A stretch of 15,992 bases of DNA from assembly GCA_032249095.1 (NCBI GenBank), contig JAVVGN010000045.1, forward strand, positions 1 to 15,992. Direction: 5' to 3'. The translations under genes and the position numbers were made by a program. The notes under the pieces were generated by a model that had not been told where the DNA came from, made no database searches, and saw nothing but the letters and a program-made list of their open reading frames with translations. Positions 4,291-15,992 of this stretch are shown here, piece after piece. Position 1 is the first letter of the stretch, and each line of letters opens with the position of its first letter. The DNA is from Candidatus Caldarchaeales archaeon. GTDB taxonomy: Archaea; Thermoproteota; Nitrososphaeria_A; Caldarchaeales; Calditenuaceae.

Positions 4291-4905
4291 TTGGGTCGCG
4301 AGGGCTTGGGGGCGGGAGAGAGTGTTTATGAGGCGTCGGAGGATACTTGGTTGCTCGAGGTCTCGCTTCTGAAGCTCGATTGTAGCGGCCTCGCGATCGA
4401 TGTGGGATGTGGGGGCGGCGACATTGCACTCACTCTTCTCAAGCGGGGTGGCGAGGTGGTGGCGCTTGACATCTCGGAAGAGGCTGTGAGAGTTACGGCC
4501 AGAAGGTCCGCGCAGAACAGCTGGAGACTCCACGTCATGGTGTGCGACAGGCTAGCAGCCCTAAGGCCGACGGGCCGTATATCCGTCATAGCGTGTAACC
4601 CTCCGTATCTCCCATCGGAGGAGCCGGCCGACAGGGCGGTGGACGGCGGACCCTCAGGGGCAGAGTTCTCGCTCGAGCTGATCTCGCAGGCAAGGCCATT
4701 CCTAGATAGGGGGGCCCGCCTTGTCCTAATCACCTCCACCCTCGGCGGTGAAGACGCCATACTGGAGGCCTGTAAGAAGATAGGTCTCCGAACGGAGATG
4801 CTCGGCTCTAGGAGGCTCTTCTTCGAGGAGCTCCACTGCTACCTAGTCGTAGGGCGGGATACTGGGCCGGAGAGGTGGAGGCTTATAGCTCGGCGAGCCG
4901 CGTGA
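4291..4905 (+). CDS. SAM-dependent methyltransferase with an NPPY motif (HemK/PrmC/Mtq2-like protein glutamine-N5 methyltransferase family)
   Basis: VYEASEDTWLL near the N-terminus, the SAM motif I LAIDVGCGGGDIAL, an acidic residue after strand 2 (VVALDIS), and the catalytic IACNPPYLP. About 200 aa, as in archaeal Mtq2 homologues. TTG start. Confidence 0.75.
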   Translation: MGREGLGAGESVYEASEDTWLLEVSLLKLDCSGLAIDVGCGGGDIALTLLKRGGEVVALDISEEAVRVTARRSAQNSWRLHVMVCDRLAALRPTGRISVIACNPPYLPSEEPADRAVDGGPSGAEFSLELISQARPFLDRGARLVLITSTLGGEDAILEACKKIGLRTEMLGSRRLFFEELHCYLVVGRDTGPERWRLIARRAA

Positions 4906-6550
4906 TGACATCTCTATAGATGTCTTTGGAGGCCATGTCCTCTATCAGTAGAATGCCGTACTGGGAGGCTAGGAACTTCGCGTCTTCGCTAAGCTTCCGC
5001 ATTGATAGGAGGGCGACCCTCTCGAGTCTCAAGTCTGACTTGACGAATATGAGTCGTATTATGCTGTTGACGGACAGCCCCTCACCTAGGTCTTGGAGGA
5101 AAAAGACTGCGCGGTCAAGCTTACCCTCCCTCCCGAAGAGTAGGTCGATGCGGTGCGTCACCTTGGAGGCGCCCACGACCCTCGAGTTGACCCGCGCCTC
5201 GAACCCCCTTCTTCTCAGCTCCTCCGCGATTGTCCGCATGGGCTTGCTCCGCTCCTGTAAAGCGTTTATTACCTCGGGGTTTACTGTGTATCTGTAGAAG
5301 GTCCTGAACTCGAAGCTACTCATGTCGTAGTCTATGCCACATATTAGGCACCTGAAGGTGATGTTGGGGTCTAGGCTCACCTCGTTGCAGTCGAAGCACG
5401 TGAAGAAGGTTGAGTGGACCTTGAGGACCTCGGCCCCACCCTCCTCTAGGGGGCTCGCGGTTATCCTGACCTGGGAGCCACATCTCGGACAGATCGTTCT
5501 CTCACCCGCGACGAAGCTGGTCTCCGGGCCGAGGTATCCGCAGGCCTCGTGTTGCATGACCCTCTGCCTCCCAATATTTACCGAGCCGCACGCCTTGCAT
5601 CGCAGATTCATCGTGTGAAGCGCGCTCTGGCAGTGGGGGCAGACGATCTTCTTGAACTCTACCCCCGCGACCCGCACAACGTTCTTGTCCTGAAGCCTCC
5701 TGAGCAGCCGCATGACGATACCGGTCTCCACGCCGAGCCTCGACTCGATTGAGGGGAAAGACCCGCCCTCTGGGGAAGTGTTATTCGGGAGGGGGACGAT
5801 CTCGCTCAGCCCCTCATCAACAATAATGTCGAGAAGCATCTCCTCAAGCTCGTCTAGGCTGGGCGCTGGGGTGGCGCGTGCCGTGATATCTACGCCCTCC
5901 TCCTCACGTAATGCGCCGGTCTCCACGAGGGGCGGCCCAGGCACCTCCTCCTCAGGGGCCGCTGTCTCGGCAGGGCCGGACTCCGCTGTTTCGCCCGTAG
6001 ACTCCGCGCCGGCAACCTGTGGTGACGTGGCTGGGGCCTGGCTCGGCTGGGCGGTTGGCTGTGGAGCCTCCATGACGGTTCCGCCTGAGGGTGGGGGCGC
6101 GGTCGGAGTCGAGGGCTGCTGCATAGCGGCGGACTCCATCTGAGTCTGCGGCCTCGGGGCCCTTGCAGCGACTAGGTAGAGGATGGTCGGCTTGAGCCCG
6201 TACGCCACGCCAACCCCGGCCGTGATAGCTAGATAGGGGGCCAGGGGGAGAATAATCCCGGCGATGTCTGTCGCTGGAGGGGGTAGGATAATGAGCGCGA
6301 CGACCCAGCCGGCGGCCGAGCCTACGAGGAGTATGACCAGCTCGCGGGCGAGGCGCCACGATATAAGCCCGTTCAGGACTCCCAGCAGGAGCCCCGTCGA
6401 CAGGCTGGACAGGAGTCCCCGGACAGACGCCTCGACGGCGAGCGCCGCGTATATGATGGGTTGGAAGAACCCCCACCCCACAACCCAGAGGACAAACGAG
6501 ATGGCTAAGGCAAGCATCGTCCGGAGGATTAGGCCCGAGACTATGCTCAT
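4883..6550 (-). CDS. Polytopic membrane protein fused to a disordered P/A/T/Q-rich linker, a winged-helix-like segment, three zinc ribbons and a C-terminal alpha/beta (restriction-endonuclease-like?) domain; putative membrane-tethered regulator
   Basis: 555 aa. Residues 1-130 form 4-5 hydrophobic helices. Residues 131-225 are low complexity (APRPQTQ...PSTPTAPPPSGG...). Residues 262-300 read SFPSIESRLGVETGIVMRLLRRLQDKNVVRV. Cys pairs are C304xxC-x10-C318xxC, H334/C337...C354xxC, and C385xxC-x12-C401xxC. The tail is IAEELRRRGFEARV...THRIDLLF...AVFFLQD...LIFVKSD. Confidence 0.75.
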   Translation of the reverse strand: MSIVSGLILRTMLALAISFVLWVVGWGFFQPIIYAALAVEASVRGLLSSLSTGLLLGVLNGLISWRLARELVILLVGSAAGWVVALIILPPPATDIAGIILPLAPYLAITAGVGVAYGLKPTILYLVAARAPRPQTQMESAAMQQPSTPTAPPPSGGTVMEAPQPTAQPSQAPATSPQVAGAESTGETAESGPAETAAPEEEVPGPPLVETGALREEEGVDITARATPAPSLDELEEMLLDIIVDEGLSEIVPLPNNTSPEGGSFPSIESRLGVETGIVMRLLRRLQDKNVVRVAGVEFKKIVCPHCQSALHTMNLRCKACGSVNIGRQRVMQHEACGYLGPETSFVAGERTICPRCGSQVRITASPLEEGGAEVLKVHSTFFTCFDCNEVSLDPNITFRCLICGIDYDMSSFEFRTFYRYTVNPEVINALQERSKPMRTIAEELRRRGFEARVNSRVVGASKVTHRIDLLFGREGKLDRAVFFLQDLGEGLSVNSIIRLIFVKSDLRLERVALLSMRKLSEDAKFLASQYGILLIEDMASKDIYRDVITRLAEL

Positions 6551-6639: not shown

Positions 6640-7986
6640 TCACCCCCCACACTCTAGGGCCTGCATCTCGGTCGTCTGTATGGTCTCGATGGAGACGACG
6701 GGGACCACCACTGTGATGATCGTGATGGTTGAGGTCGTCACGTTGAGCGATCTGACGAGGGTTTCCCTCCTGAGGAGGCATACGTCTATGTAGCCCGTCG
6801 TTGTGAGGGAGGTCCTGGGGTCTGAGGTGTCTACTGTGAAGCTGCCGGGCACCTCGATGCTTCCCTCGGGGACGTGGAGCACGTACCTGTAATTCGTGGG
6901 CGGGCTGTAGGGTACCTCGCAGATGAAGACGGCTGATGCGCTATCACCCGGGTTAAGCCTCGATATGCGGACCTCTAGTGGGCTACTGCAAGTGAATCCC
7001 ACCGGATCAAGCCTCACGGTTGCGTTCAGCGTGGGGCCGGGCACGGCAGAGTCGTAGGCCAGTACGAAGGAGATGTTGACGAGGGCGGTGGGGGTGTTTG
7101 TCGTGTTGAAGATTATCAGCCTCGGCACCGGGTTAGTGATCCTCAGTATTAGGGGCCAAGAGTGCTGGGTGACGTTGAAGCGGAGCAGGACGTGGCTGTC
7201 TACCACGACGCTTCTTGCGTAGAGGGGAATGATTGCTGCCCAGCTCCCGTCGTTCCTCATCACCTCTGCCATGACGTTGTACCTCCCGGGAGCGACGTTG
7301 AAGACGAAGACCTCTTCCCTCCCGATCCTACCCGTGCTGGACCCTAGATCTCGAACCTCGACGTACCTCTTGACCCAGAGCTCGGCCCTGCAGAAGTCTA
7401 GGCTGCTCTCGGATGATGATGGGAGAACGCATCCGTCGCCCTCCGTAGCCACCCTGACGCGGTAGACGCTGGAGACGCTTAGGTTGGTCAGCGAGATCAT
7501 GAGGAGGTAGGGCAGCTTCTTTGGGCCTATCTCGTAGGGCGAGACAAAGGAGTTGCCCCTCGCGGTGGCGAGCCGCACCCTGATCAGCTCGTTCGGCTGG
7601 AGCTGATAGTTGAGCCTCACGACGCTCCTCTCACCCGGCGCGAGGATTATGGGTTGTTCCGAGGCCCTGAGGACTCCGTTGATCGTACTCTCGATATAGA
7701 TGGCTTGGACCGTGGTTTCTATCGGCGAGCTGTTCGTGATGTTGAGGACGGGCTGGTATTGGCCCGGCGAGTCGGCGGCGCTGCTCAGGGTGAGGGACAT
7801 GTCGAGCTTCTCCCTAAGCTTCTCAGCCTCAAAGATGAGGCGCCTGTTGACAGAGTCCATATACATTGTTTGGAGCTGCTGCATGTAGATCCACATAGGT
7901 ATCACTATCGTGAAAAAGACGAGTAGGCCGATGACTGTTCCCAGGACCGCGGAGACGCCTGCCCCCTTCCTACGAGTTCTCGCCAT
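6640..7986 (-). CDS. Large type IV pilin-like (class III signal peptide) surface protein, family B
   Basis: The N-terminus MARTRRKG/AGVSAVLGTVIGLLVFFTIVIPMWIYM has a basic leader, Gly, then a hydrophobic helix of about 22 aa. It is a clear paralogue of the 396-aa protein (AGVS...FFT..VP..YM; NxSP..I; ATARGNSFVS versus VTERGRLFAS). It has many N-x-S/T sequons. ATG start with gggggtga 9 nt upstream. Confidence 0.75.
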   Translation of the reverse strand: MARTRRKGAGVSAVLGTVIGLLVFFTIVIPMWIYMQQLQTMYMDSVNRRLIFEAEKLREKLDMSLTLSSAADSPGQYQPVLNITNSSPIETTVQAIYIESTINGVLRASEQPIILAPGERSVVRLNYQLQPNELIRVRLATARGNSFVSPYEIGPKKLPYLLMISLTNLSVSSVYRVRVATEGDGCVLPSSSESSLDFCRAELWVKRYVEVRDLGSSTGRIGREEVFVFNVAPGRYNVMAEVMRNDGSWAAIIPLYARSVVVDSHVLLRFNVTQHSWPLILRITNPVPRLIIFNTTNTPTALVNISFVLAYDSAVPGPTLNATVRLDPVGFTCSSPLEVRISRLNPGDSASAVFICEVPYSPPTNYRYVLHVPEGSIEVPGSFTVDTSDPRTSLTTTGYIDVCLLRRETLVRSLNVTTSTITIITVVVPVVSIETIQTTEMQALECGG

Positions 7987-7988
7987 GG

Positions 7989-8552
7989 CTAGTTGTCACC
8001 CCCTATTTTCGTGGTGGTTGTGGTAGTGGTTACCGTGTATGTTTGCGTTGTAGTGGTTATGACTGTTGTGGTGACGGTGGTGAGTCTGTATGTCCCGAGA
8101 GTCGTTGTTGATGTCGTGCTCACAGTTGTGGGCGTTGTTAGCGTCGTCACGGTTGTTACAGTCGTCGTCTGAGTCGTAGTCGTAGGTCCATAGACCGTGG
8201 TGGATCTCGTGGTTGTCGTAGTCAACACACGATACACAGTGACGGTTGTAGTCGCGGTGACACTATTTGTCAGGGTTCGGACAGTGGTGGTAGTTGTGGT
8301 GGTTATTGTTCTTATGACTCTGGTCGAGAGGGTGCTTATGGTTCTGGTCGTAGTCGTCGTCGTGGTGGTTGATGCCGTGGCCTCCCCCGATAGCACAGTC
8401 GTCGTCTCCGTCGTCGTTACATAGGTGGTTGTTGTTGTCGTTACGGTGGTGTATGTAGTCGAGGTTGATGTCCGCGTCCTAGAGCCCTGTGCCAAGACCT
8501 CTCCAACGTGTGCCGAGAAGCCGATCAATACGATGAGCGCCAAGACGGTCAC
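7989..8552 (-). CDS. Secreted hyper-threonine-rich protein (about 56% Thr after the signal peptide)
   Basis: The minus-strand ORF sits 2 nt before and 20 nt after its neighbouring genes. The hydrophobic N-terminus is MTVLALIVLIGFSAHVGEVLA/QGS. Then follow 163 aa made almost only of T, V, S, R, Y and I. The composition matches the in-frame Thr-rich tail of the upstream 605-aa gene, which supports this strand and frame. The start may lie further upstream (see findings). Confidence 0.65.
   Translation of the reverse strand: MTVLALIVLIGFSAHVGEVLAQGSRTRTSTSTTYTTVTTTTTTYVTTTETTTVLSGEATASTTTTTTTTRTISTLSTRVIRTITTTTTTTVRTLTNSVTATTTVTVYRVLTTTTTRSTTVYGPTTTTQTTTVTTVTTLTTPTTVSTTSTTTLGTYRLTTVTTTVITTTTQTYTVTTTTTTTKIGGDN
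7992..8480 (-). repeat. Low-complexity ACN-codon (Thr) coding tract 1
   Basis: The plus strand is almost entirely G/T-rich triplets (ggt, tgt, cgt, agt, gta, gac). No exact repeat unit is discernible by eye. Confidence 0.8.
7996..8003 (-). promoter_or_regulatory. Shine-Dalgarno-like site for the 448-aa gene
   Basis: The minus strand reads gggggtga, followed 9 nt later by the ATG at 7986. Confidence 0.5.
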
Positions 8553-8572
8553 GAGAGCCGCGGCATCCCTCC

Positions 8573-10390
8573 TCAGAGGGCCTTCACCTCCATCCTCCTC
8601 GCTAGGCGCCAGAGCAGCGGCGCCAGACCAGCCGAGGCGGCGACTGCCCCGCCCATAGCCATCAGGGCCTCGTAGCCGCTATTAACCGTTCCAGCCCCCA
8701 CCGGAAGGACCGGTACTGCCCCTCCGGCCCTGCTTATGGTAGTGGTGGTCGTGGTGGTTGTGGTCACGGTGGTCCGCGCGGTGGAGGTGCTTGTGGCAGT
8801 AGATGTCACCGTGTAGGTGGCGGTGTAGGAGGTGGTGGTTTGGGTTATGGTCGTGGTGGCGGTGGGGGAGTAGAGGGTGCTGGTCTGGGTTGTGCTTGAG
8901 GCTGTCCTGACGGTGGAGGTGGTGGTGTAGCTGGTCGAAGTTCGTGCTAGGGTGACCCACTGCGTTGATGTGTAGCTGGTGAACGTGGCCATCCTGGTTG
9001 TCACGGTCGTTGTGGTGGTAGTGCTTGATGTACTTGTCGAGATAGTGGTTCTGGTTGATGTTGTGGTTGTGGTAGACGTGTATACGGTCCGCGTAGTAGT
9101 TGTCGTTGTCGTGCTGGTCAGCGTTCTAGTGGTGCTCGGCACCGTTGTGGACGTGGTTTTCGTGGTCGTCGCCGTAGCTGTCGCCGTCACGGTTGTCGTA
9201 AGAGTAACCCAAACAACCTCGACATCCGTTACGTCTACATACTCTATGCTGACCTCGTAGAGGTTCAGTATCGAGGTTGGTGGGTTCAGGTGGTAGGTCC
9301 CCTGGGAGACTTGGTACATCACTCCCTGGGGATCAAAGTCCAAGAGGAGCCGCCCACCAGTGGTATAGCTGCTGACGCAGTCCCGTATCGCTAGCGTGAC
9401 TTGGACGGTGGCCTGGTCCGTCGAATAGGCAGAGACTAGGAAGCTGTTGGCAAGCCTATTCAGAAGATCTACATTGAGCTTAGCATAATCAGGGAAGATA
9501 ACGTCTCCCGCCACATCAAAGCGCCATATCTGGGGGAGGATGGTGTAGTCATCGGAGGTGATTGACACGGTCATGGGGTACCGGAGCGTCTGCCCCGATA
9601 GGGGGACGCGGATCTCCATCGGCGGCTCGCCCGACACGTGGATCGCTCCGCCCGCTAGGTTTCCACCCCCATCCAGAATCTTTACATCGATGTTTGTGTC
9701 TAGCACTCGGTCGCTCGCCATCAGCAACCTCAGCTTAACCTCATTGTTCACCACGAAAACTAGCTCCCCGTTCTCCAGCGCCGCCGATTCCACTGGATCA
9801 ACAAGCTCCACGAAGATCCAGCTGCTTGGCGGGGGGCAGGACTCGCTTAACCCCGCGCGGGGCGTAGCTGCCTCGAAGGACGAGACCTTGAAGAGCTCCG
9901 TCCTTAGGAGGGCCTCGATGGATCCCGGATCGCCAGGCCTTATGAGGGCTGTTGGTAGATAGTGCGCGGTAACCAGGATGGGGTCGCCCCTGCGGCATCC
10001 GGGGCATCTGAAGGAGACCTCCGCGACCTCTGCAACATTCAGCGTGACAAAGCGGGACGGGTCGAGGCCGCTATCGTAGGCGAGCGAGCCATTCCGATAA
10101 ACTATTATGCGGAAGATAGTGATCCTCTCGTATCCTACGTTTCTAAACCTTGCCACCCCGTATCCAGCCTCCTCAGGGATCCTCCAGTCGGGGAAGTACA
10201 CGTAGTCAGCCCCCAGCATCGACCTGAGGACGAGGCTATCCTTGTTGAGGCTCTGGACAGCCTCCTGCCTCCCGATAGACGAGTAGGAGGAGAGGAGTCC
10301 GAGCATGCCAAGCCCTATTGCGACGACCACAGAGAGCGTCATCGCTGTAGAGACAACGTCTGAGTCGCCCCTACGCGGCCCACGCCTCAA
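8573..10390 (-). CDS. Large type IV pilin-like (class III signal) protein, family A, with a C-terminal Thr-rich stalk and a C-terminal hydrophobic anchor
   Basis: The N-terminus is (TTG)RRGPRRG/DSDVVSTAMTLSVVVAIGLGMLGLL. The N-domain shares FRNVGYERITIFRIIVY...CPGCRRGDPILVTAHYLPTALIRPGDP with the 172- and 400-aa proteins. Residues 396-552 are about 56% Thr. The C-terminus is YEALMAMGGAVAASAGLAPLLWRLARRMEVKAL. The TTG start overlaps the upstream stop as TTGA, with gaggtga 7 nt upstream. Confidence 0.75.
   Translation of the reverse strand: MRRGPRRGDSDVVSTAMTLSVVVAIGLGMLGLLSSYSSIGRQEAVQSLNKDSLVLRSMLGADYVYFPDWRIPEEAGYGVARFRNVGYERITIFRIIVYRNGSLAYDSGLDPSRFVTLNVAEVAEVSFRCPGCRRGDPILVTAHYLPTALIRPGDPGSIEALLRTELFKVSSFEAATPRAGLSESCPPPSSWIFVELVDPVESAALENGELVFVVNNEVKLRLLMASDRVLDTNIDVKILDGGGNLAGGAIHVSGEPPMEIRVPLSGQTLRYPMTVSITSDDYTILPQIWRFDVAGDVIFPDYAKLNVDLLNRLANSFLVSAYSTDQATVQVTLAIRDCVSSYTTGGRLLLDFDPQGVMYQVSQGTYHLNPPTSILNLYEVSIEYVDVTDVEVVWVTLTTTVTATATATTTKTTSTTVPSTTRTLTSTTTTTTTRTVYTSTTTTTSTRTTISTSTSSTTTTTTVTTRMATFTSYTSTQWVTLARTSTSYTTTSTVRTASSTTQTSTLYSPTATTTITQTTTSYTATYTVTSTATSTSTARTTVTTTTTTTTTISRAGGAVPVLPVGAGTVNSGYEALMAMGGAVAASAGLAPLLWRLARRMEVKAL
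8584..8591 (-). promoter_or_regulatory. Strong Shine-Dalgarno-like site inside the 3-prime end of the 605-aa gene
   Basis: The minus strand reads ggaggtga. Exactly 7 nt downstream is a CTG (8576-8574) in the frame of the Thr-rich ORF, overlapping the TGA stop as CTGA. Confidence 0.4.
8606..8674 (-). other. C-terminal hydrophobic segment followed by a basic cluster (membrane anchor or sorting-signal-like)
   Basis: ALMAMGGAVAASAGLAPLLW is followed by RLARRMEVKAL. It is preceded by AGGAVPVLPVGAG immediately after the Thr-rich stalk. Confidence 0.5.
8735..9205 (-). repeat. Low-complexity ACN-codon (Thr/Ser) coding tract 2, the stalk of the 605-aa protein
   Basis: Residues 396-552 contain about 88 Thr of 157 by hand count. 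It shares the 14-mer gtggtggttgtggt (8751-8764) with tract 1 (8021-8034). Confidence 0.8.
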
Positions 10391-11589
10391 GAAAGTGTCA
10401 CCTCAACGTGATAGATGTCGGTGATGTCGAGGGGCGCGGGCAGGTCGAGATACGTGGTATCCCACTGTACGCCGGCCGGGAGTGAGACGGTTCTCGACAT
10501 GTCGGCAAGAAGGTTTCCCGCGCAGTCTCTCAGAACTAAGTTAAGCCGGAATGTTACGGGCTCGTCCTGTTTCCCTATCTCGACCTGAATGGTCGTCACG
10601 ACGGGGTTGTCGCTGATGTAGGAGATGTACTGGGTGATGAGGCCGATACCGGAGACGTGGGCGCTGCGGTCTGGCAGCGCGCCAAACTTGAAGTGGCTCG
10701 GTATGGGTATGTAGGAGGACCCCACTACCGATAAGTCGAAGGGAGTGCCTATACCGATGACGCCCCCGACGAACTGCTCATATGTTACGCCAACCCTGAG
10801 GTCCGCAGTCAAAGTTTGGGAGGAGTCCTGGTCAGCGAGCTGGAACTCGAACTGTTGTGTGCTTAGCGTTAGGGGTCTTGCATAGCTTATGAGGACTGAG
10901 AAGCGGTTGTTCGGCGGGTTTGAAAAGGAGCCGGTCAGGAAGTTCGTCACGGGGTCAACAGATGTAAAGGCGGCCCACCTAGCCCCCTCCGGCAGGGCGC
11001 AGGGGCTGCCGATCCTCGTTCCGGGATAAATTATAAGCGTCTCGACATACCGCATCTCGTCCGCCGACAGCTCGGGGTTTGCGTTGTCGTACAGCGCCCT
11101 AGCTATGTACCAGATCCTTATTCTGGTTCTCTCCCCGAAGAAGCAGGAGCTGCATGTTGGCAGCTCAGAACTCGTGAACTCGGCCTTCTCCTGGGGCGAG
11201 ATGGGGTCGAGCCCGCCTGATCCACAGGCGACCCACCTAGCTGGGGGGCTGGGCCACGCGCCGCCTAGCGAGCCGTCCTGCCTTATGAGCTCTATTCGGG
11301 TCACACACAGGTCTAGGGGGGAGATGTTTCTGAGCACAATAAGCCTCAGGTCCTCCCTGGAGGTGTAGCGGACCAGCTCGAAGGCCAGGAGACCGGAGGT
11401 CCTTACTAGGGCGATGCCCTTGTCCGTCTTTTGCGTCGTGTCCGTCGCATTGATGGCGAACCAGCTCGTGGCGAGGGATATGAGGATCAGCCCAACGGCT
11501 AGGGTGATTGCGGCCAAAATGACTGAGGATAGGACTGGAGAGACGCCGCGGGTCCCGTTGCCGGTTGTACGGCGCCTGCTAGACTTCAA
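10387..11589 (-). CDS. Type IV pilin-like (class III signal) protein, family A
   Basis: The N-terminus is (TTG)KSSRRRTTGNGTRG/VSPVLSSVILAAITLAVGLILISL, the canonical archaeal pilin RG/VSPV...ILxAIT motif. The N-domain LRLIVLRNISPLDLCVTRIELI...CSSCFFGERTRIRIWYIARALYDNANP is paralogous to the 172- and 605-aa proteins. No ATG or GTG is available upstream in frame. Confidence 0.8.
   Translation of the reverse strand: MKSSRRRTTGNGTRGVSPVLSSVILAAITLAVGLILISLATSWFAINATDTTQKTDKGIALVRTSGLLAFELVRYTSREDLRLIVLRNISPLDLCVTRIELIRQDGSLGGAWPSPPARWVACGSGGLDPISPQEKAEFTSSELPTCSSCFFGERTRIRIWYIARALYDNANPELSADEMRYVETLIIYPGTRIGSPCALPEGARWAAFTSVDPVTNFLTGSFSNPPNNRFSVLISYARPLTLSTQQFEFQLADQDSSQTLTADLRVGVTYEQFVGGVIGIGTPFDLSVVGSSYIPIPSHFKFGALPDRSAHVSGIGLITQYISYISDNPVVTTIQVEIGKQDEPVTFRLNLVLRDCAGNLLADMSRTVSLPAGVQWDTTYLDLPAPLDITDIYHVEVTLS
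10398..10404 (-). promoter_or_regulatory. Shine-Dalgarno-like site for the 605-aa gene
   Basis: The minus strand reads gaggtga, followed 7 nt later by the TTG at 10390. Confidence 0.5.
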
Positions 11590-11624
11590 TTCTCGCCCAC
11601 ACGCTGGGCATGGGATATTGTTCC

Positions 11625-11637
11625 CCCTATATATGTG
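11625..11637 (-). promoter_or_regulatory. Internal promoter candidate (TATA box) for the 400-aa gene and downstream genes
   Basis: The minus strand reads cacatatataggg in the only sizeable gap of the cluster (166 nt, 11590-11755). It lies about 36-48 nt upstream of the TTG at 11589. A 6-bp perfect inverted repeat, aatcag-n5-ctgatt (11669-11685), lies about 40 nt further upstream. Confidence 0.4.
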
Positions 11638-11755
11638 CGATAGGTCGCGTAGGGTGCCGGATTTGTCAATCAGTCTGGCTGATTAGCCGGATGTGCAATG
11701 ACCGCTGTAGGCGTTTCGGCGGCCTGGAAAAGGTTGGCCATTGCCGGGGCGTTCG

Positions 11756-12946
11756 TTACCCCCGCCTCTGCGGCCTGACGGTTATAGATGTGGAGTCGCT
11801 GTCCGAGGGGTATGCCAGGCCGGATTCCTGGCCGGTCCCTGCGCTTGAGAGGGCGGGGATTGTGATGGTTATCGAGCCGGGGTTATTGCTCCTGAGGTCT
11901 GCGGCGTTTAGGTTGCAGCGGAGCGCTATTGTTGTTGAGCCCGGTGTCAAGGTATCTCCCAGTTGTATGCAGATGAGCGTTCCTGACTCGTAGTCTCCGG
12001 ATAGAGTGATTGAGTTCTGTATGGCCGCATGGTTTATTCCGACGCCCTCGCCGGCCTGTGCGGGGAGTGAGAGTGTTATGTCGAAGCTGAATGACTCGCC
12101 CTCGAGGACCCTTGAGGGCGCAATGATTTCTAGGTCGATGGTTTGCGGGGTTATCTCTGTCCTCGAGAGTATGAATACGACGTTCCAGTAGTCGGGTAGG
12201 GTTACCTCGGCGGGATTTGTGCTTGGCGCGATGAGTCTCCCCGGGCCTATTAGCCCTCCGTTCTCTAGGAGGTAGACATGGAATGTTCCTGCTGTCGCTC
12301 CGAAGGATAGAGATATGTTTTCGTTGCTCGCGGTGGCCTTATACGTGATGGATCGTGGCTGTATGTCGGCGTCCCCTTGTGGGGATATGAGGATTGTGTA
12401 CTGGTTTCCCCTCTTCATGTTGATTATGGAGACCGTGAGGGTGTAGGGGTAGAGGCCTGATGCGAGCCTGCCCCCGATGATGAGTACTGGTGTGGAGGCG
12501 AAGAGCCTTCCCCTCTCCGTGACCGCTATGAACTGGGCCCTCCCCGTAAAGTTTGTGAGGCATTGGTCTACGCGGACCGATGTGTTCCAGCCCGGCGAGA
12601 CGTCTATCGGCGTCTGGATGCATGGGTCGCCGCCTATCGGTGCCGCCTCCTCGACATCCATGGCCCAGATCCTCTGGACCCTGATCATTAGTGGTGATGT
12701 GTTTTTGAGCACCAGCCTTATCTGGTTGCTCGTGGATGGGAATGGTATTATTGTCCCCTCAATCGCGATCTCGAGGCTCTCCGTGGCTCGGTCTATGTCT
12801 CTTATCCTCCTGTAGTTGAGCTCGTTGGAGTAGAGGTTGTATAGGGTTGACATGTATAGGTAGAGTGGGACTAGCGTTGTGAAGAATATGGCTATCGCTA
12901 TCGCCACCCCGACCATCGTGGAGACTCCTGCCCTATCTCGCCTCAT
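11756..12946 (-). CDS. Large type IV pilin-like (class III signal) surface protein, family B
   Basis: The N-terminus is MRRDRA/GVSTMVGVAIAIAIFFTTLVPLYLYM. It is paralogous to the 448-aa protein. The ATG at 12946 overlaps the upstream gene by 14 nt. Confidence 0.75.
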   Translation of the reverse strand: MRRDRAGVSTMVGVAIAIAIFFTTLVPLYLYMSTLYNLYSNELNYRRIRDIDRATESLEIAIEGTIIPFPSTSNQIRLVLKNTSPLMIRVQRIWAMDVEEAAPIGGDPCIQTPIDVSPGWNTSVRVDQCLTNFTGRAQFIAVTERGRLFASTPVLIIGGRLASGLYPYTLTVSIINMKRGNQYTILISPQGDADIQPRSITYKATASNENISLSFGATAGTFHVYLLENGGLIGPGRLIAPSTNPAEVTLPDYWNVVFILSRTEITPQTIDLEIIAPSRVLEGESFSFDITLSLPAQAGEGVGINHAAIQNSITLSGDYESGTLICIQLGDTLTPGSTTIALRCNLNAADLRSNNPGSITITIPALSSAGTGQESGLAYPSDSDSTSITVRPQRRG

Positions 12947-13451
12947 ACCTAGCTACCTGGGCTGACATTACGTTTCTCGCTGGGTCTGCACTGCTGTATA
13001 GGTGCGCGGGCATGTACCAGAGCTCGACTATGTATGGCGGCTCTCCCGGATATCTCTCGCATCCCTGTATGGTTTCGAACCTGTCTGGGGAGGCGGCGAC
13101 TATGGTTGGCTGGATGTTGTACCTTATGCCTGGTGAGGGCCGTGATTTAGGGTAGATTGTGCAGCTGATGACTATTACGTCGTTCATCCCGGGGTTGGAG
13201 ACCCAGACGGCGTTGGTCTGGAGCGAGGCCGCCTCGACTACTAGGAGGATTCTGTGCTGGGAGATCATCCTGTCGTATTCTCTCGATATCTGTGTTCCCT
13301 GGCTCGAGACGTAGCCGAGGGAGAGCGCCCAGAGGGCCACGCCCAGTGTGACGACGCCCGCGAAGAGGAGGATCTCGCCTAGGAGTATTGTGTCGCCTCT
13401 TTTGTTTCGGGGCTGGCGCCTCCTACACATGGGGTTGATTGTCGCGTCCAT
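12933..13451 (-). CDS. Type IV pilin-like (class III signal) protein, family A, stand-alone N-module (pilin-sized)
   Basis: The N-terminus is MDATINPMCRRRQPRNKRG/DTILLGEILLFAGVVTLGVALWAL. It then has AVWVSNPGMNDVIVISCTIY...GCERYPGEPPYIVELWYMPAHLYSSADP, matching the N-domains of the 400- and 605-aa proteins. It is the first gene of the block. Confidence 0.75.
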   Translation of the reverse strand: MDATINPMCRRRQPRNKRGDTILLGEILLFAGVVTLGVALWALSLGYVSSQGTQISREYDRMISQHRILLVVEAASLQTNAVWVSNPGMNDVIVISCTIYPKSRPSPGIRYNIQPTIVAASPDRFETIQGCERYPGEPPYIVELWYMPAHLYSSADPARNVMSAQVARYEAR

Positions 13452-13510: not shown

Positions 13511-14938
13511 TTATAAATGGTTTTTAAATAGTGGTAGTTTTGTGATTAACAGTTTGTTTGGTCGGCCTTGTTTGGTCGAGAGTTGGGGCTGGGGGGCGTT
13601 TGTGTCTCTGCGGTAGAGGTATTCTGCGAGTATTACGATGGCTGCTGTTAGGGCCGCTGTGAATATTATCATTGCTGCACCCTCGAGGAGCCACTGGCCC
13701 TGAGAGTAGTTGTATATGAGTGTGAAGATGAAGTCCCAGTATGGGAAGCCTAGGTTCATTACGACTGCGAGGGGGGCGAGGGCCGCGGTGGCCACTATGG
13801 GGTGGAATGCGAGGCGTGTGGGGCGGGGTTCGTCGCTGTTGGGTCTAAAGGCTATCTGGGCCGCCAGCATGGCTAGAAAGGGGCCGACTGGGTAGAAGTA
13901 GTAGGGGTAGAACTGGCGTGCGAGGACGCCCTGCAGCATCCCGGACCAGTTGGCGGTCCAGTAGTTTCTCGGCAGCAGGAGCATGGTTAGGACTGAGGCG
14001 GAGGCGGCTACCGCGAGGTTTGCGGGTATGTGGAGCCTTCCCTGGAGCGCTCTGTAGAGGATTACCGCCAGCGTGACGAGGGGTGTTATGAAGGGTAGCG
14101 TGTTCCAGAATACTTGACCCATCCCGAGGTATGAAAGGATGTACCACGGAAGTGATTGGGGGACTCCGATGACGAAGGGGCCAACTATTGGTGATAATGG
14201 AATATTGTTAAAGGTCAGGTGACCCTCGACGGTTGTCTTGATTGTCTGTTGTATCCAAAGCCAAGGATTCAGAGATAATGAGATAATTGGCGGGAACATG
14301 TATAAGGCTAGGCGTTTAGGATTAAGCTGATGATGTAACAATAAAAAGAGTGCGAGGACTATGATGAGGATTAGAAACGTCAATTTGGTGAGAACCGCCA
14401 TAGATGCGAACACCGCAGCCAATATAAGATCTCTCCGCCTTTTACTTCTGTACAAACAATATACGCTTGTTACTGCAAATAACGTACCTATTGAGTCGAG
14501 GTATGCTGTAGAATATTGTATTAGGAAGGGGTCAAGTGCTGTGAGAGATGCCGCAACTAATGCTGCTTTATGAGAACGTTTTTTGACAAGCATGTATGTG
14601 GGGATTGTAGTCAGACTGGAGGCTAAAATGGGTGCTAAAAGTCCTGCCTGAGCGTGACCAATAATGGGACCTATTGTGCTGGCTGTCAATCCGGTAAGTA
14701 TCATGCCCAGCGGTGGAACGCCTGTGTTTATTCCTGCCAGCGCTGTGATGTTGAGTGCTTTGATATTTTCGATGTATTGTATTCCGAAAACTGTATAAGT
14801 GTCTACATCGAATATGATTAGAGATGAAGCTCCCCACCCCGGGTATATCCACGTACTGTAGCGTAGAGTGAATCCAAATGTGGTTACGAGCAACAGGGCA
14901 ATTAAGTATCTCTTCGAAAACCATCTGTGCCTACACAT
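13511..14938 (-). CDS. GT-C fold glycosyltransferase, PMT/ArnT-like (GT39/GT83-type, PMT_2-like) polytopic membrane protein
   Basis: 475 aa with about 11-13 hydrophobic helices. An acidic loop motif (IIFDVDTY) follows TM1. The block KAALVAASLTALDPFLIQYSTAYLDSIGTLFAVTSVYCLY...AAVFASMAVLTKLTFLI fits the conserved PMT_2/ArnT core pattern. ATG start with a TATA-like caaataaatac about 30 nt upstream. Confidence 0.7.
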   Translation of the reverse strand: MCRHRWFSKRYLIALLLVTTFGFTLRYSTWIYPGWGASSLIIFDVDTYTVFGIQYIENIKALNITALAGINTGVPPLGMILTGLTASTIGPIIGHAQAGLLAPILASSLTTIPTYMLVKKRSHKAALVAASLTALDPFLIQYSTAYLDSIGTLFAVTSVYCLYRSKRRRDLILAAVFASMAVLTKLTFLILIIVLALFLLLHHQLNPKRLALYMFPPIISLSLNPWLWIQQTIKTTVEGHLTFNNIPLSPIVGPFVIGVPQSLPWYILSYLGMGQVFWNTLPFITPLVTLAVILYRALQGRLHIPANLAVAASASVLTMLLLPRNYWTANWSGMLQGVLARQFYPYYFYPVGPFLAMLAAQIAFRPNSDEPRPTRLAFHPIVATAALAPLAVVMNLGFPYWDFIFTLIYNYSQGQWLLEGAAMIIFTAALTAAIVILAEYLYRRDTNAPQPQLSTKQGRPNKLLITKLPLFKNHL

Positions 14939-15034
14939 CTTTCAGTATCCAAACATATTTCCCCTGTATTTATTTGGTATAGATAATGAGTGTGTACAGC
15001 TTATAACAGTTATAATCTTCTTTGTGCATTCTTG
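14939..15034. promoter_or_regulatory. AT-rich divergent promoter region (GT-C gene leftward, DMT gene rightward)
   Basis: gtatttattt (14967-14976; minus strand aaataaatac) lies about 30 nt from the ATG at 14938. agttataatc (15008-15017) lies about 20-35 nt upstream of the ATGs at 15035 and 15047. Confidence 0.45.
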
Positions 15035-15397
15035 ATGCTGGTCTTGATGCCTTGGCTTCTCGGAATAGTCGTTGTGTTATTAGTAGGTCTGAATACGTTG
15101 TTCTGGGGGTTTGCCCTTAAAGAGGTGGGTGATCCGGAGTTTAATCTTGGATTTATGCTAGAGTTAGTCTTCAATAGATGGTTCATGTTGGCTATGGTAA
15201 GCGGTTTTGCTGTAGCTGTCTTGAGTTACTGGGTGTATAGTGCTTTAGGTGTAATGCTTGGGAGGTTCTTCCTCTCCATATCTATTGTGTCTGTTTTAAT
15301 CGTGGGTGTGTTTGTTCTCGGTGAAAAAATAAGCATAGAGCAATGGATAGGAGTGGTGCTAGTAACTATAGGGGTACTACTGATAGGTAGAGTATAG
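15035..15397 (+). CDS. Small four-TM DMT/EamA-type membrane protein (ArnE/ArnF-like candidate lipid-linked sugar flippase subunit)
   Basis: About 120 aa with four hydrophobic helices. The C-terminal VLGEKISIEQWIGVVLVTIGVLLI is the typical EamA/SMR-like terminal helix motif. The ORF track opens at GTG 14990, but the ATG at 15035 (or 15047) fits the promoter better. Confidence 0.6.
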   Translation: MLVLMPWLLGIVVVLLVGLNTLFWGFALKEVGDPEFNLGFMLELVFNRWFMLAMVSGFAVAVLSYWVYSALGVMLGRFFLSISIVSVLIVGVFVLGEKISIEQWIGVVLVTIGVLLIGRV

Positions 15398-15405
15398 ATT
15401 TCCTG

Positions 15406-15930
15406 CTACAGCTCCCAGACACAGGTTGTCCTAGGATTCTTACAAACTACTTCCTCAACTATCTTTGCCTTTCCTAAAACTTCTTCAATCATTTTTAGCG
15501 CTATTTCTCTCTTTTTATGCCCTTTGTCGTGAAACTGGACTATAATCGTTCTGACCCCAAGTGACGGCAGTAGCATAATCTCCTCTAGGACGGCGTGTTC
15601 GCATCCCTCACAGTTCAGTTTAACTACTTCCGGCCTGTACTCCTTTACTAGCTGTTGCAAACTATATGTTGGGACATCAAGCAGCAAATCACCTTTAGGG
15701 GCTCTCAAGCCATACGTATCGAGCCCAACCGATTGGGGAATCCACGGGACTGGTTCACCGACTGAGGCAAGTAGAGTAATCACGAGGAGATTTTTGCAGT
15801 TTTCGACAAGCACTTCATAGTGTTCCTTTACAGGCTCAACCGCGATAACCCTCTTGGCGCCCTTAAAAAGCCATAGTAGCACTGTGTCTCCTATGTATGC
15901 CCCTACATCAAGCACAGTCTTCCTGTCCAC
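15406..15930 (-). CDS. FkbM-family SAM-dependent methyltransferase
   Basis: It has LDVGAYIGDT (SAM glycine-rich motif), VIAVEPV, and VVKLNCEGCEHAVL, the counterpart of the FkbM iKiDiEGaE block. GTG start with cttaaatag 25 nt upstream. 174 aa is short for the family. Confidence 0.7.
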   Translation of the reverse strand: MDRKTVLDVGAYIGDTVLLWLFKGAKRVIAVEPVKEHYEVLVENCKNLLVITLLASVGEPVPWIPQSVGLDTYGLRAPKGDLLLDVPTYSLQQLVKEYRPEVVKLNCEGCEHAVLEEIMLLPSLGVRTIIVQFHDKGHKKREIALKMIEEVLGKAKIVEEVVCKNPRTTCVWEL

Positions 15931-15954
15931 ATTTACATCGAGCTCGTCTCCAAA

Positions 15955-15963
15955 CTATTTAAG
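15955..15963 (-). promoter_or_regulatory. TATA-box candidate for the FkbM-like gene
   Basis: The minus strand reads cttaaatag, ending 25 nt upstream of the GTG at 15930, consistent with a leaderless transcript. Confidence 0.45.
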
Positions 15964-15992
15964 CTTCTTCTGAGCATGGTGTATTATGGAGT

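Follow-up and report, generated by a model that had tools for sequence, protein, structure and literature searches.

Modular pilin-like genes of a Calditenuaceae contig as a probable accessory set of a type IV pilus-like system

A 15,992-nucleotide stretch of contig JAVVGN010000045.1 (assembly GCA_032249095.1; hereafter the window, meaning this whole stretch) from a Candidatus Caldarchaeales archaeon carries a block of six minus-strand genes: g172, g396, g400, g605, a threonine-rich open reading frame (ORF) and g448. The organism belongs to Ca. Calditenuaceae, hot-spring archaea of the Caldarchaeales (formerly Aigarchaeota). The six genes are read here as the accessory (minor, modular) pilin set of a complete, Calditenuaceae-specific type IV pilus-like system, with a probability of roughly 0.75. 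The locus as a whole would be a lineage-specific variant of the clade-4 type IV pilus (T4P) loci with TackOD1 of TACK archaea, unusually rich in modular accessory pilins and supplied with a glycosylation cassette. A first reading of the same DNA, referred to below as the original prediction, had described five of these genes as an orphan operon of large pilin-like proteins with no assembly machinery in reach.

All five pilin-like proteins begin with a short basic leader, a Gly and a single strongly hydrophobic N-terminal segment (Kyte-Doolittle peaks of 2.1-2.75). The class III signal layout on which the original prediction was built (basic leader, Gly, hydrophobic helix of approximately 20 aa) was recovered in each of them and is conserved in the orthologues. 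The N-terminal motif is kept down to approximately 30-40% identity and is therefore not a product of chance; the RG/D[TS] motif of g172 (a slash marks the putative cleavage site) is likewise kept in its orthologues. In orthologue alignments, the conserved Gly of the large proteins stands in the same register as the Gly of the small pilin of the locus. In g396 and g448 this Gly was found directly before [VIL]S when orthologues and pilins were aligned. Cleavage had previously been placed at RDRA/G (g396) and RRKG/A (g448); the alignments shift the probable sites to after the Gly preceding [VIL]S, giving RDRAG/VST and RRKGAG/VSA, respectively. A FlaFind-type core pattern, which may be imperfect, matched g172 but not the other four proteins. 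A type IV pilin (class III signal) architecture of the five proteins is supported.

Two families were distinguished among the five proteins. Family A comprises g396 and g448 (blastp E 5e-19; hhalign of g396 against the g448-family profile 99.1%, E 1.4e-18). Family B comprises g172, g400 and g605: g172 was matched to the g400-family profile at 91% (E 1e-6, 153 columns), and aa 2-383 of g605 were matched to the g400 family at 99% (E 2.7e-18). No kinship between families A and B was detectable (hhalign probability 5%), and they were handled as separate families, each apparently related to PilA. Comparison with the small pilins of related loci gave 97.6% (E 3e-12) for the g400-family profile and 95.5% (E 1.6e-8, 124 columns) for the g448-family profile. 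The former comparison is partly circular, since the g400-family search itself supplied four rows of the pilin alignment; the latter is not. Residues 5-151 of g448 were aligned to essentially the whole of the 133-aa pilin and not to its helix alone. The small pilin of the relatives passes TIGR02537 and has UpsA as its best match. The five proteins themselves gave no match to PF07790 (Pilin_N) or TIGR02537 at E<=1, and their only N-terminal matches, to UpsA (g400, E 0.014) and UpsB (g448, E 0.0015), were sub-threshold and well under the cutoffs. When 1.84 billion cluster representatives were searched exhaustively with a profile, only 55 family B relatives were returned, among them g605-like and g172-like proteins, with ordinary Pilin_N pilins at the weak end. 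Both families are unannotated, Pfam and NCBIfam having no model for these accessory families.

AlphaFold models were examined for one member of each family. In both, an N-terminal helix of 40-50 residues is followed by tandem immunoglobulin (Ig)/fibronectin type III (FnIII)-like beta-sandwiches. The helix spans residues 9-58 in the AlphaFold2 model of g448 (mean confidence score, pLDDT, 83.3) and residues 18-56 in that of g400 (pLDDT 82.6). By paralogy with these two, g172, g396 and g605 would share a helix and an Ig-like head. Because pilin-profile homology and the helix/beta-sandwich models coincide, the five proteins are best described as putative modular pilins, in which a pilin module is followed by extra Ig-like modules; g172 would be the pilin module alone. 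Foldseek searches of the PDB returned only generic FnIII and macroglobulin-like matches for g400 and only generic Ig and macroglobulin-like matches for g448.

Related loci were recovered with the g448 protein (L006, L007, L009, L010 and L013), with T2SSF (L021) and with FkbM (L035), giving seven loci with enough flanking DNA and protein identities of approximately 40% to 82%. In every one of the seven, a T2SSE gene (FlaI/PilB-type ATPase), a T2SSF gene (TadC/FlaJ-type platform) and a gene for a 133-157-aa pilin adjoin the pilin-like genes, and a canonical PilA-type pilin is never missing from the locus. ATPase and platform genes were seen next to the set in L006-L010, L013, L021 and L035. The description of the genes as an orphan operon is not supported by this result. 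L013, the closest relative for which flanking DNA is available (82% identity), has the same gene sizes and is collinear with the window. Its order is T2SSE, T2SSF (on the opposite strand), a 137-aa pilin, a glycosyltransferase (GT), the 172-, 396-, 400- and 605-aa proteins, the Thr-rich protein, a 454-aa protein, TackOD1, MTS, CoxM, CoxS and UbiA. The gene order of L009 and L010 (76% identity) is the same. In Ca. Calditenuis fumarioli (approximately 40% identity), the platform gene and two small pilin genes lie upstream, the ATPase gene follows directly after the g448 homologue, and the g172-g396 pair is inverted and placed downstream of the ATPase gene. Overlaps of 4 nt couple the L006 genes translationally, and 78 nt separate the end of the g448 homologue from the T2SSE ATPase gene that follows. 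In L021 (archaeon HR02), the GT39-like gene is separated from the genes for pilin, platform and ATPase by an EamA-like gene and two GT2 genes. The cassette of L035 is flanked by GT2, a 135-aa pilin, T2SSF, T2SSE and TackOD1. A g448-like protein was also detectable in a metagenome-assembled genome (MAG) labelled C. subterraneum.

Within the window, no ATPase, platform, prepilin peptidase or archaellin gene was found among the genes scanned, as the original prediction had stated. This is read as an assembly-edge artefact, because the window ends at an insertion sequence (IS) that truncates a gene of a conserved cassette. Positions 13680-15938, which cover the GT39-like, EamA-like and FkbM genes, are 89% identical in nucleotides to L035, and this homology stops at 15938, leaving the FkbM gene (TIGR01444, 59 bits) truncated. 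A contig that carries an identical g475 protein (L040) runs approximately 270 nt past the window end (L040:1-273). The extension encodes the N-terminus of an IS4/5 transposase (DUF4096, E 2.6e-25), starting at window position 15986. An IS4/5 element is inserted in the FkbM gene and truncates it. Exact-protein look-ups ended within 270 nt of the FkbM gene in every assembly of this strain; a break at this point is what a repeated IS is expected to cause. The EamA-like protein of the cassette matches Pfam EamA at a sub-threshold E of 6e-4, and in L006, L021 and L035 its gene is located between the GT gene and those for the pilin and T2SSF. An exact 34-mer search of metagenome contigs gave no matches. 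A scan of GTDB genomes with the T2SSF protein found relatives and no contig overlapping this strain.

The window also retains a marker of the system. The g555 protein was matched to PF18551 (TackOD1, arCOG06883) at 86.4 bits against a cutoff of 32, and the TackOD1 gene adjoins the ATPase or platform gene in L007 and L035. TackOD1 is a published marker of thaumarchaeal T4P loci (PMC5847659, PMC4858521), and large components of TACK T4P loci have also been published as 'minor pilin or adhesin'; the claim that the genes belong to no known kind of locus was therefore not upheld. With this companion gene in the window and the machinery in the relatives, the five genes are most probably not orphans. 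In the window TackOD1 protein, the zinc-ribbon domain is preceded by an N-terminal multi-transmembrane region and a Pro/Ala-rich linker. The TackOD1 paralogues of C. subterraneum and L006 (approximately 292 aa) are too short for such an N-terminal extension.

The features of the window that bear on the locus are collected in Table 1.

Table 1. Coordinates of the pilin-like genes and associated features (window positions)
Feature	Position	Strand	Length	Description
g172	12933-13451	minus	172 aa	Putative stand-alone family B pilin module, leader NKRG/DTILLGEILLFAG; heads module 1
g396	11756-12946	minus	396 aa	Putative family A modular pilin; likely site RDRAG/VSTMVG; 14-nt overlap with g172
g396/g400 intergenic gap	11590-11755	minus	166 nt	ATATATA box approximately 45 nt upstream of the g400 start
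g400	10387-11589	minus	400 aa	Putative family B modular pilin, GTRG/VSPVLSSVILAAITLAVG; N-terminal helix and three FnIII/Ig-like domains (predicted)
g605	8573-10390	minus	605 aa	Putative family B modular pilin, PRRG/DSDVVST; Thr/Ser-rich stalk, C-terminal hydrophobic helix, basic tail
Sixth ORF	7989-8552	minus	187 aa	50% Thr; secreted, Sec-type signal peptide (...GEVLAQG)
g448	6640-7986	minus	448 aa	Putative family A modular pilin, RRKGAG/VSAVLGTV; PilA-like module at aa ~5-151, further beta-sandwich domains after it
g555	4883-6550	minus		Multi-transmembrane protein with TackOD1 (arCOG06883) multi-zinc-ribbon domain, PF18551
g475	13511-14938	minus		Polytopic GT39/PMT_2-like (GT-C type) glycosyltransferase; kept upstream of the pilin-like genes in relatives
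Small EamA-like membrane protein	14990-15397	plus		Member of the low-GC glycosylation cassette
FkbM-family methyltransferase	15406-15930	minus	174 aa	5'-truncated; 321 aa in L035
IS4/5-family element, left end	15939-15992	plus		Transposase ATG at 15986; runs off the window

The five minus-strand ORFs of the original prediction lie exactly where they had been placed, and both reported overlaps, one of 14 nt at 12933-12946 and one of TTGA at 10387-10390, are real. GGTGA-type Shine-Dalgarno motifs were found before g605 and g448. The five genes are not consecutive, as had been claimed, the Thr-rich ORF lying between g605 and g448; the reported 2-nt gap at 7987-7988 exists, but the gene on its other side is this unlisted ORF and not g605. 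Tight coupling of the genes holds for the overlaps but not for the whole block, since the 166-nt gap parts g396 from g400 and, in relatives, the block falls into two movable modules. The other window genes scanned encode PIN, UbiA, CoxS, CoxM, MTS methyltransferase, TackOD1, GT39-like, EamA-like and FkbM proteins.

Module 1 consists of g172-g396, and module 2 of g400-g605-Thr-rich-g448. The modules are separated or inverted in L006 and L021; across the relatives they were found inverted, split by the ATPase gene, tandemly duplicated, or with module 2 alone. Module 1 is duplicated in tandem in a Nitrososphaerota MAG (L022:1672-5335, on a 1.55-Mb contig), and only module 2 was present in the recovered DNA of L026 and L033-L035, where the g172-g396 module was not detected. 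This shows that the accessory pilins undergo modular turnover. The 166-nt gap between the modules probably holds an internal promoter, judging from its ATATATA box. A further arrangement was observed at L040:5814-12693, where unrelated genes (PAC2, an ECF transporter and diphthamide synthase) follow g400 in place of g605. This junction may be a chimera created in assembly at the Thr-rich repeat, or the rearrangement may be genuine.

The Thr-rich ORF is a real gene, because it is conserved in frame with a signal peptide in L006-L019, L021 and L035, and because in L006 it overlaps each neighbour by 4 nt. It was overlooked by gene callers, and several assemblies carry short opposite-strand Val-rich ORFs instead, which are probably spurious. 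The preceding gene, g605, encodes a Thr/Ser-rich stretch of approximately 160 aa (aa ~395-560), a transmembrane segment at 575-593 and a basic tail. The C-terminal anchor is kept in its orthologues and suggests a membrane tether. The succession of stalk, helix and basic tail at the C-terminus of g605 (window 8573-8800, ...GYEALMAMGGAVAASAGLAPLLWRLARRMEVKAL) recalls archaeosortase-type sorting signals. No known sorting motif (PGF or similar) was recognised there, and an archaeosortase was not looked for.

In every case a GT39/PMT_2-like GT-C enzyme is encoded next to these genes. A protein identical to g475 is named 'glycosyltransferase family 39' by NCBI, and several hydrophobic segments are predicted in it. 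The PMT_2 model (PF13231) was passed by one of six orthologues scanned directly (that of L010, 37.7 bits against a cutoff of 26.1); the window copy and the four other orthologues gave no match. Single-sequence and profile searches of g475 against PDB sequences also gave no matches. Speculatively, g475 could be an O-glycosyltransferase for the Thr-rich stalks. The fuller proposal is that the locus encodes a pilin-scaffolded, membrane-tethered glycoprotein structure, in which g475 would O-glycosylate both the mucin-like g605 stalk and the secreted protein of 50% Thr; it is speculative and considered rather unlikely. The archaeal protein O-glycosyltransferase pathway has been called 'elusive' (PMC8241124), and if the proposal were true, g475 would be the first concrete candidate for such an enzyme. 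A pilin with an N-terminal class III signal and a C-terminal anchor would then also be a new kind of pilus-to-cell tether. The consistent linkage of Thr-rich proteins to a GT39-like enzyme in a pilus locus provides a testable lead on archaeal O-glycosylation.

The cassette that includes g475 has a composition of its own. Positions 13680-15938, covering most of the GT39-like gene and the EamA-like and FkbM genes, have a GC content of 42-45% against approximately 58%. The pilin-like genes of L035 match the window only in short stretches of approximately 70% identity. Taken with the 89% identity of the cassette to L035, the low GC content and the divergence of the pilin-like genes suggest a recent exchange of the glycosylation cassette. 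At the other end of the window, positions 55-2073 (PIN/UbiA) are approximately 94% identical to L009-L011, and identity to these contigs is only approximately 73% over the rest of the window. This looks like a mosaic genome or a recent transfer of the PIN/UbiA segment.

The proposed system would operate as follows. Its core would be encoded just upstream of the glycosyltransferase cassette by genes for an ATPase (FlaI/PilB family), a platform (TadC/FlaJ family) and a PilA-type major pilin of approximately 135 aa, all cut off in the present assembly by the IS4/5 insertion. Each precursor would be cleaved after the conserved Gly by a prepilin peptidase with its gene at another place in the genome; neither the window nor the gene lists of the related loci were found to contain such a gene. 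The pilin module, formed by the N-terminal helix together with the first Ig-like domain, would dock into a filament of the small pilin powered by the adjacent ATPase and platform. The extra Ig/FnIII-like domains would be exposed and would most likely serve as a tip, priming or adhesin complex, and g605 may tether the structure to the cell through its Thr-rich stalk and C-terminal membrane anchor. The subunits would be glycosylated by the GT39-like enzyme and the GT2/FkbM cassette, with the TackOD1 zinc-ribbon membrane protein as a conserved partner on the cytoplasmic side. Four of the five proteins are much larger than structural pilins, as first noted, and the original suggestion of a tip or adhesin set on a pilin scaffold plausibly describes such an accessory set.

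Several observations weigh against an accessory pilin set. The main gap is in the strain's own DNA, in which the ATPase, platform and major pilin were not seen, no assembly crossing the IS. The five proteins passed the threshold of no Pfam or NCBIfam family, curated pilin models included; of the profile searches proposed by the original prediction, those against archaeal pilin models gave sub-threshold matches at best, but hhalign does link both families to the small pilin of the locus. Residue -2 in family A is usually Ser, Ala or Thr and not Lys/Arg, which bears on the putative cleavage by the peptidase. A C-terminal membrane anchor such as that of g605 is unusual for a filament subunit. Finally, the Foldseek matches had TM-scores below 0.25, and the fold reveals neither ligand nor function.

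In a rival reading, the ATPase and platform would build not a long filament but a short, cell-bound surface complex of the bindosome or pseudopilus kind, with g605 as a tethered base and the Thr-rich proteins as a glycosylated stalk or matrix. The Sulfolobus bindosome consists of large class-III-signal proteins assembled by a T4P-like system (PMC4858521). The conserved anchor and stalk of g605, and the ratio of five large subunits to one small pilin, would fit such a complex. It is nevertheless thought unlikely, since a canonical PilA-type pilin is always in the locus, no substrate-binding-protein domains were found, and the ATPase and platform score far under the BasE and BasF cutoffs. Alternatively, the proteins may never be processed, being type II (signal-anchor) envelope or S-layer-like proteins with an ancestral pilin-like N-terminus that are co-regulated with the pilus. 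The lack of a basic residue at -2 in family A and the failure of curated pilin models are compatible with this, and TACK T4P loci commonly encode S-layer-like proteins anchored by a C-terminal transmembrane segment (PMC4858521). However, the Gly at -1 is in register with that of the small pilin, g448 keeps the full pilin module and not just its helix, and in L006 the genes are joined by 4-nt overlaps up to a g448 homologue only 78 nt from the T2SSE gene; unprocessed proteins are accordingly judged very improbable. The orphan operon, that is, a dedicated complex without a nearby cognate ATPase and platform, served by machinery in trans or by none, appears the least credible of these readings. 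The window itself holds no machinery, and in Vulcanisaeta and Caldivirga there are loci of pilins alone, with neither an ATPase nor TadC (PMC4858521), but all seven relative loci carry the machinery alongside, TackOD1 lies inside the window, and the window stops at an IS within a gene of the conserved cassette. The correction of the orphan call illustrates that an IS-induced contig break can mimic missing machinery.

An accessory pilin set of this kind was compared with known systems. With the archaellum, the locus proteins share an N-terminal hydrophobic helix and a beta-sandwich, as in FlaF/FlaG, and the best match of the relatives' ATPase is FlaI-like. The locus proteins are 2-4 times larger than FlaF/FlaG. 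An archaellum was rejected, the ATPase of the relatives scoring 356 bits against the FlaI cutoff of 550. The precomputed Pfam annotations for the related loci include no FlaB or FlaH homologue; of the ORFs of L021 and L035, only a part was scanned. Class III signal peptides are common to the locus and to the Ups, Aap and Bas systems, the best NCBIfam matches being UpsF (platform), UpsA and UpsB, and the bindosome is an example of large non-filament proteins using this pathway. These systems were also rejected, with scores of 237 against 1000 for BasE, 75 against 1300 for BasF, 83 against 400 for UpsF and 24 against 130 for UpsA; in addition, the locus has no sugar-binding domains, its folds are Ig/FnIII-like and its accessory genes are different.

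The nearest published relatives are the TACK clade-4 T4P loci, in which large signal-peptide proteins have been described as 'minor pilin or adhesin' (Makarova, Koonin & Albers 2016, PMC4858521). The clade-4 locus of Ca. Caldiarchaeum subterraneum comprises a 374-aa unassigned signal-bearing protein, a pilin (arCOG03871), TadC, arCOG06883 and FlaI, and that genome also has, at other places, a canonical archaellum operon and a FlaK/PulO peptidase gene standing alone (PMC4858521). Both systems have a FlaI-family ATPase, a TadC-like platform, a PilA-family pilin and TackOD1, the core being known here from the relatives. In the Calditenuaceae locus, by contrast, the accessory set has grown to five putative modular pilins of two unannotated families and a Thr-rich protein, a GT39-like enzyme and a variable GT2/FkbM/EamA cassette are present as well, and TackOD1 is fused to an N-terminal multi-transmembrane region. 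The two archaeal modular pilin families occur only in a few dozen sequence clusters, all from hot-spring Caldarchaeales; the organisms are uncultured, and the practical impact is limited for now.

The bacterial modular minor pilins offer a parallel in design. Streptococcus sanguinis PilB and PilC, CofB of enterotoxigenic Escherichia coli and GspK of the type II secretion system are thought to be located at the tip and to act in adhesion or priming (PMC8179133). They likewise join a small pilin module to bulky C-terminal modules, CofB having beta-repeat and beta-sandwich domains. No sequence homology to the locus proteins was detectable, and the latter differ in having an archaeal class III leader and an Ig-like head in place of the bacterial alpha/beta fold or the IPR012902 motif. 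By analogy of design, PilB, PilC and CofB would be the closest functional analogues of the proteins described here, and the bacterial idea of grafting a module onto a pilin would be extended to Archaea.

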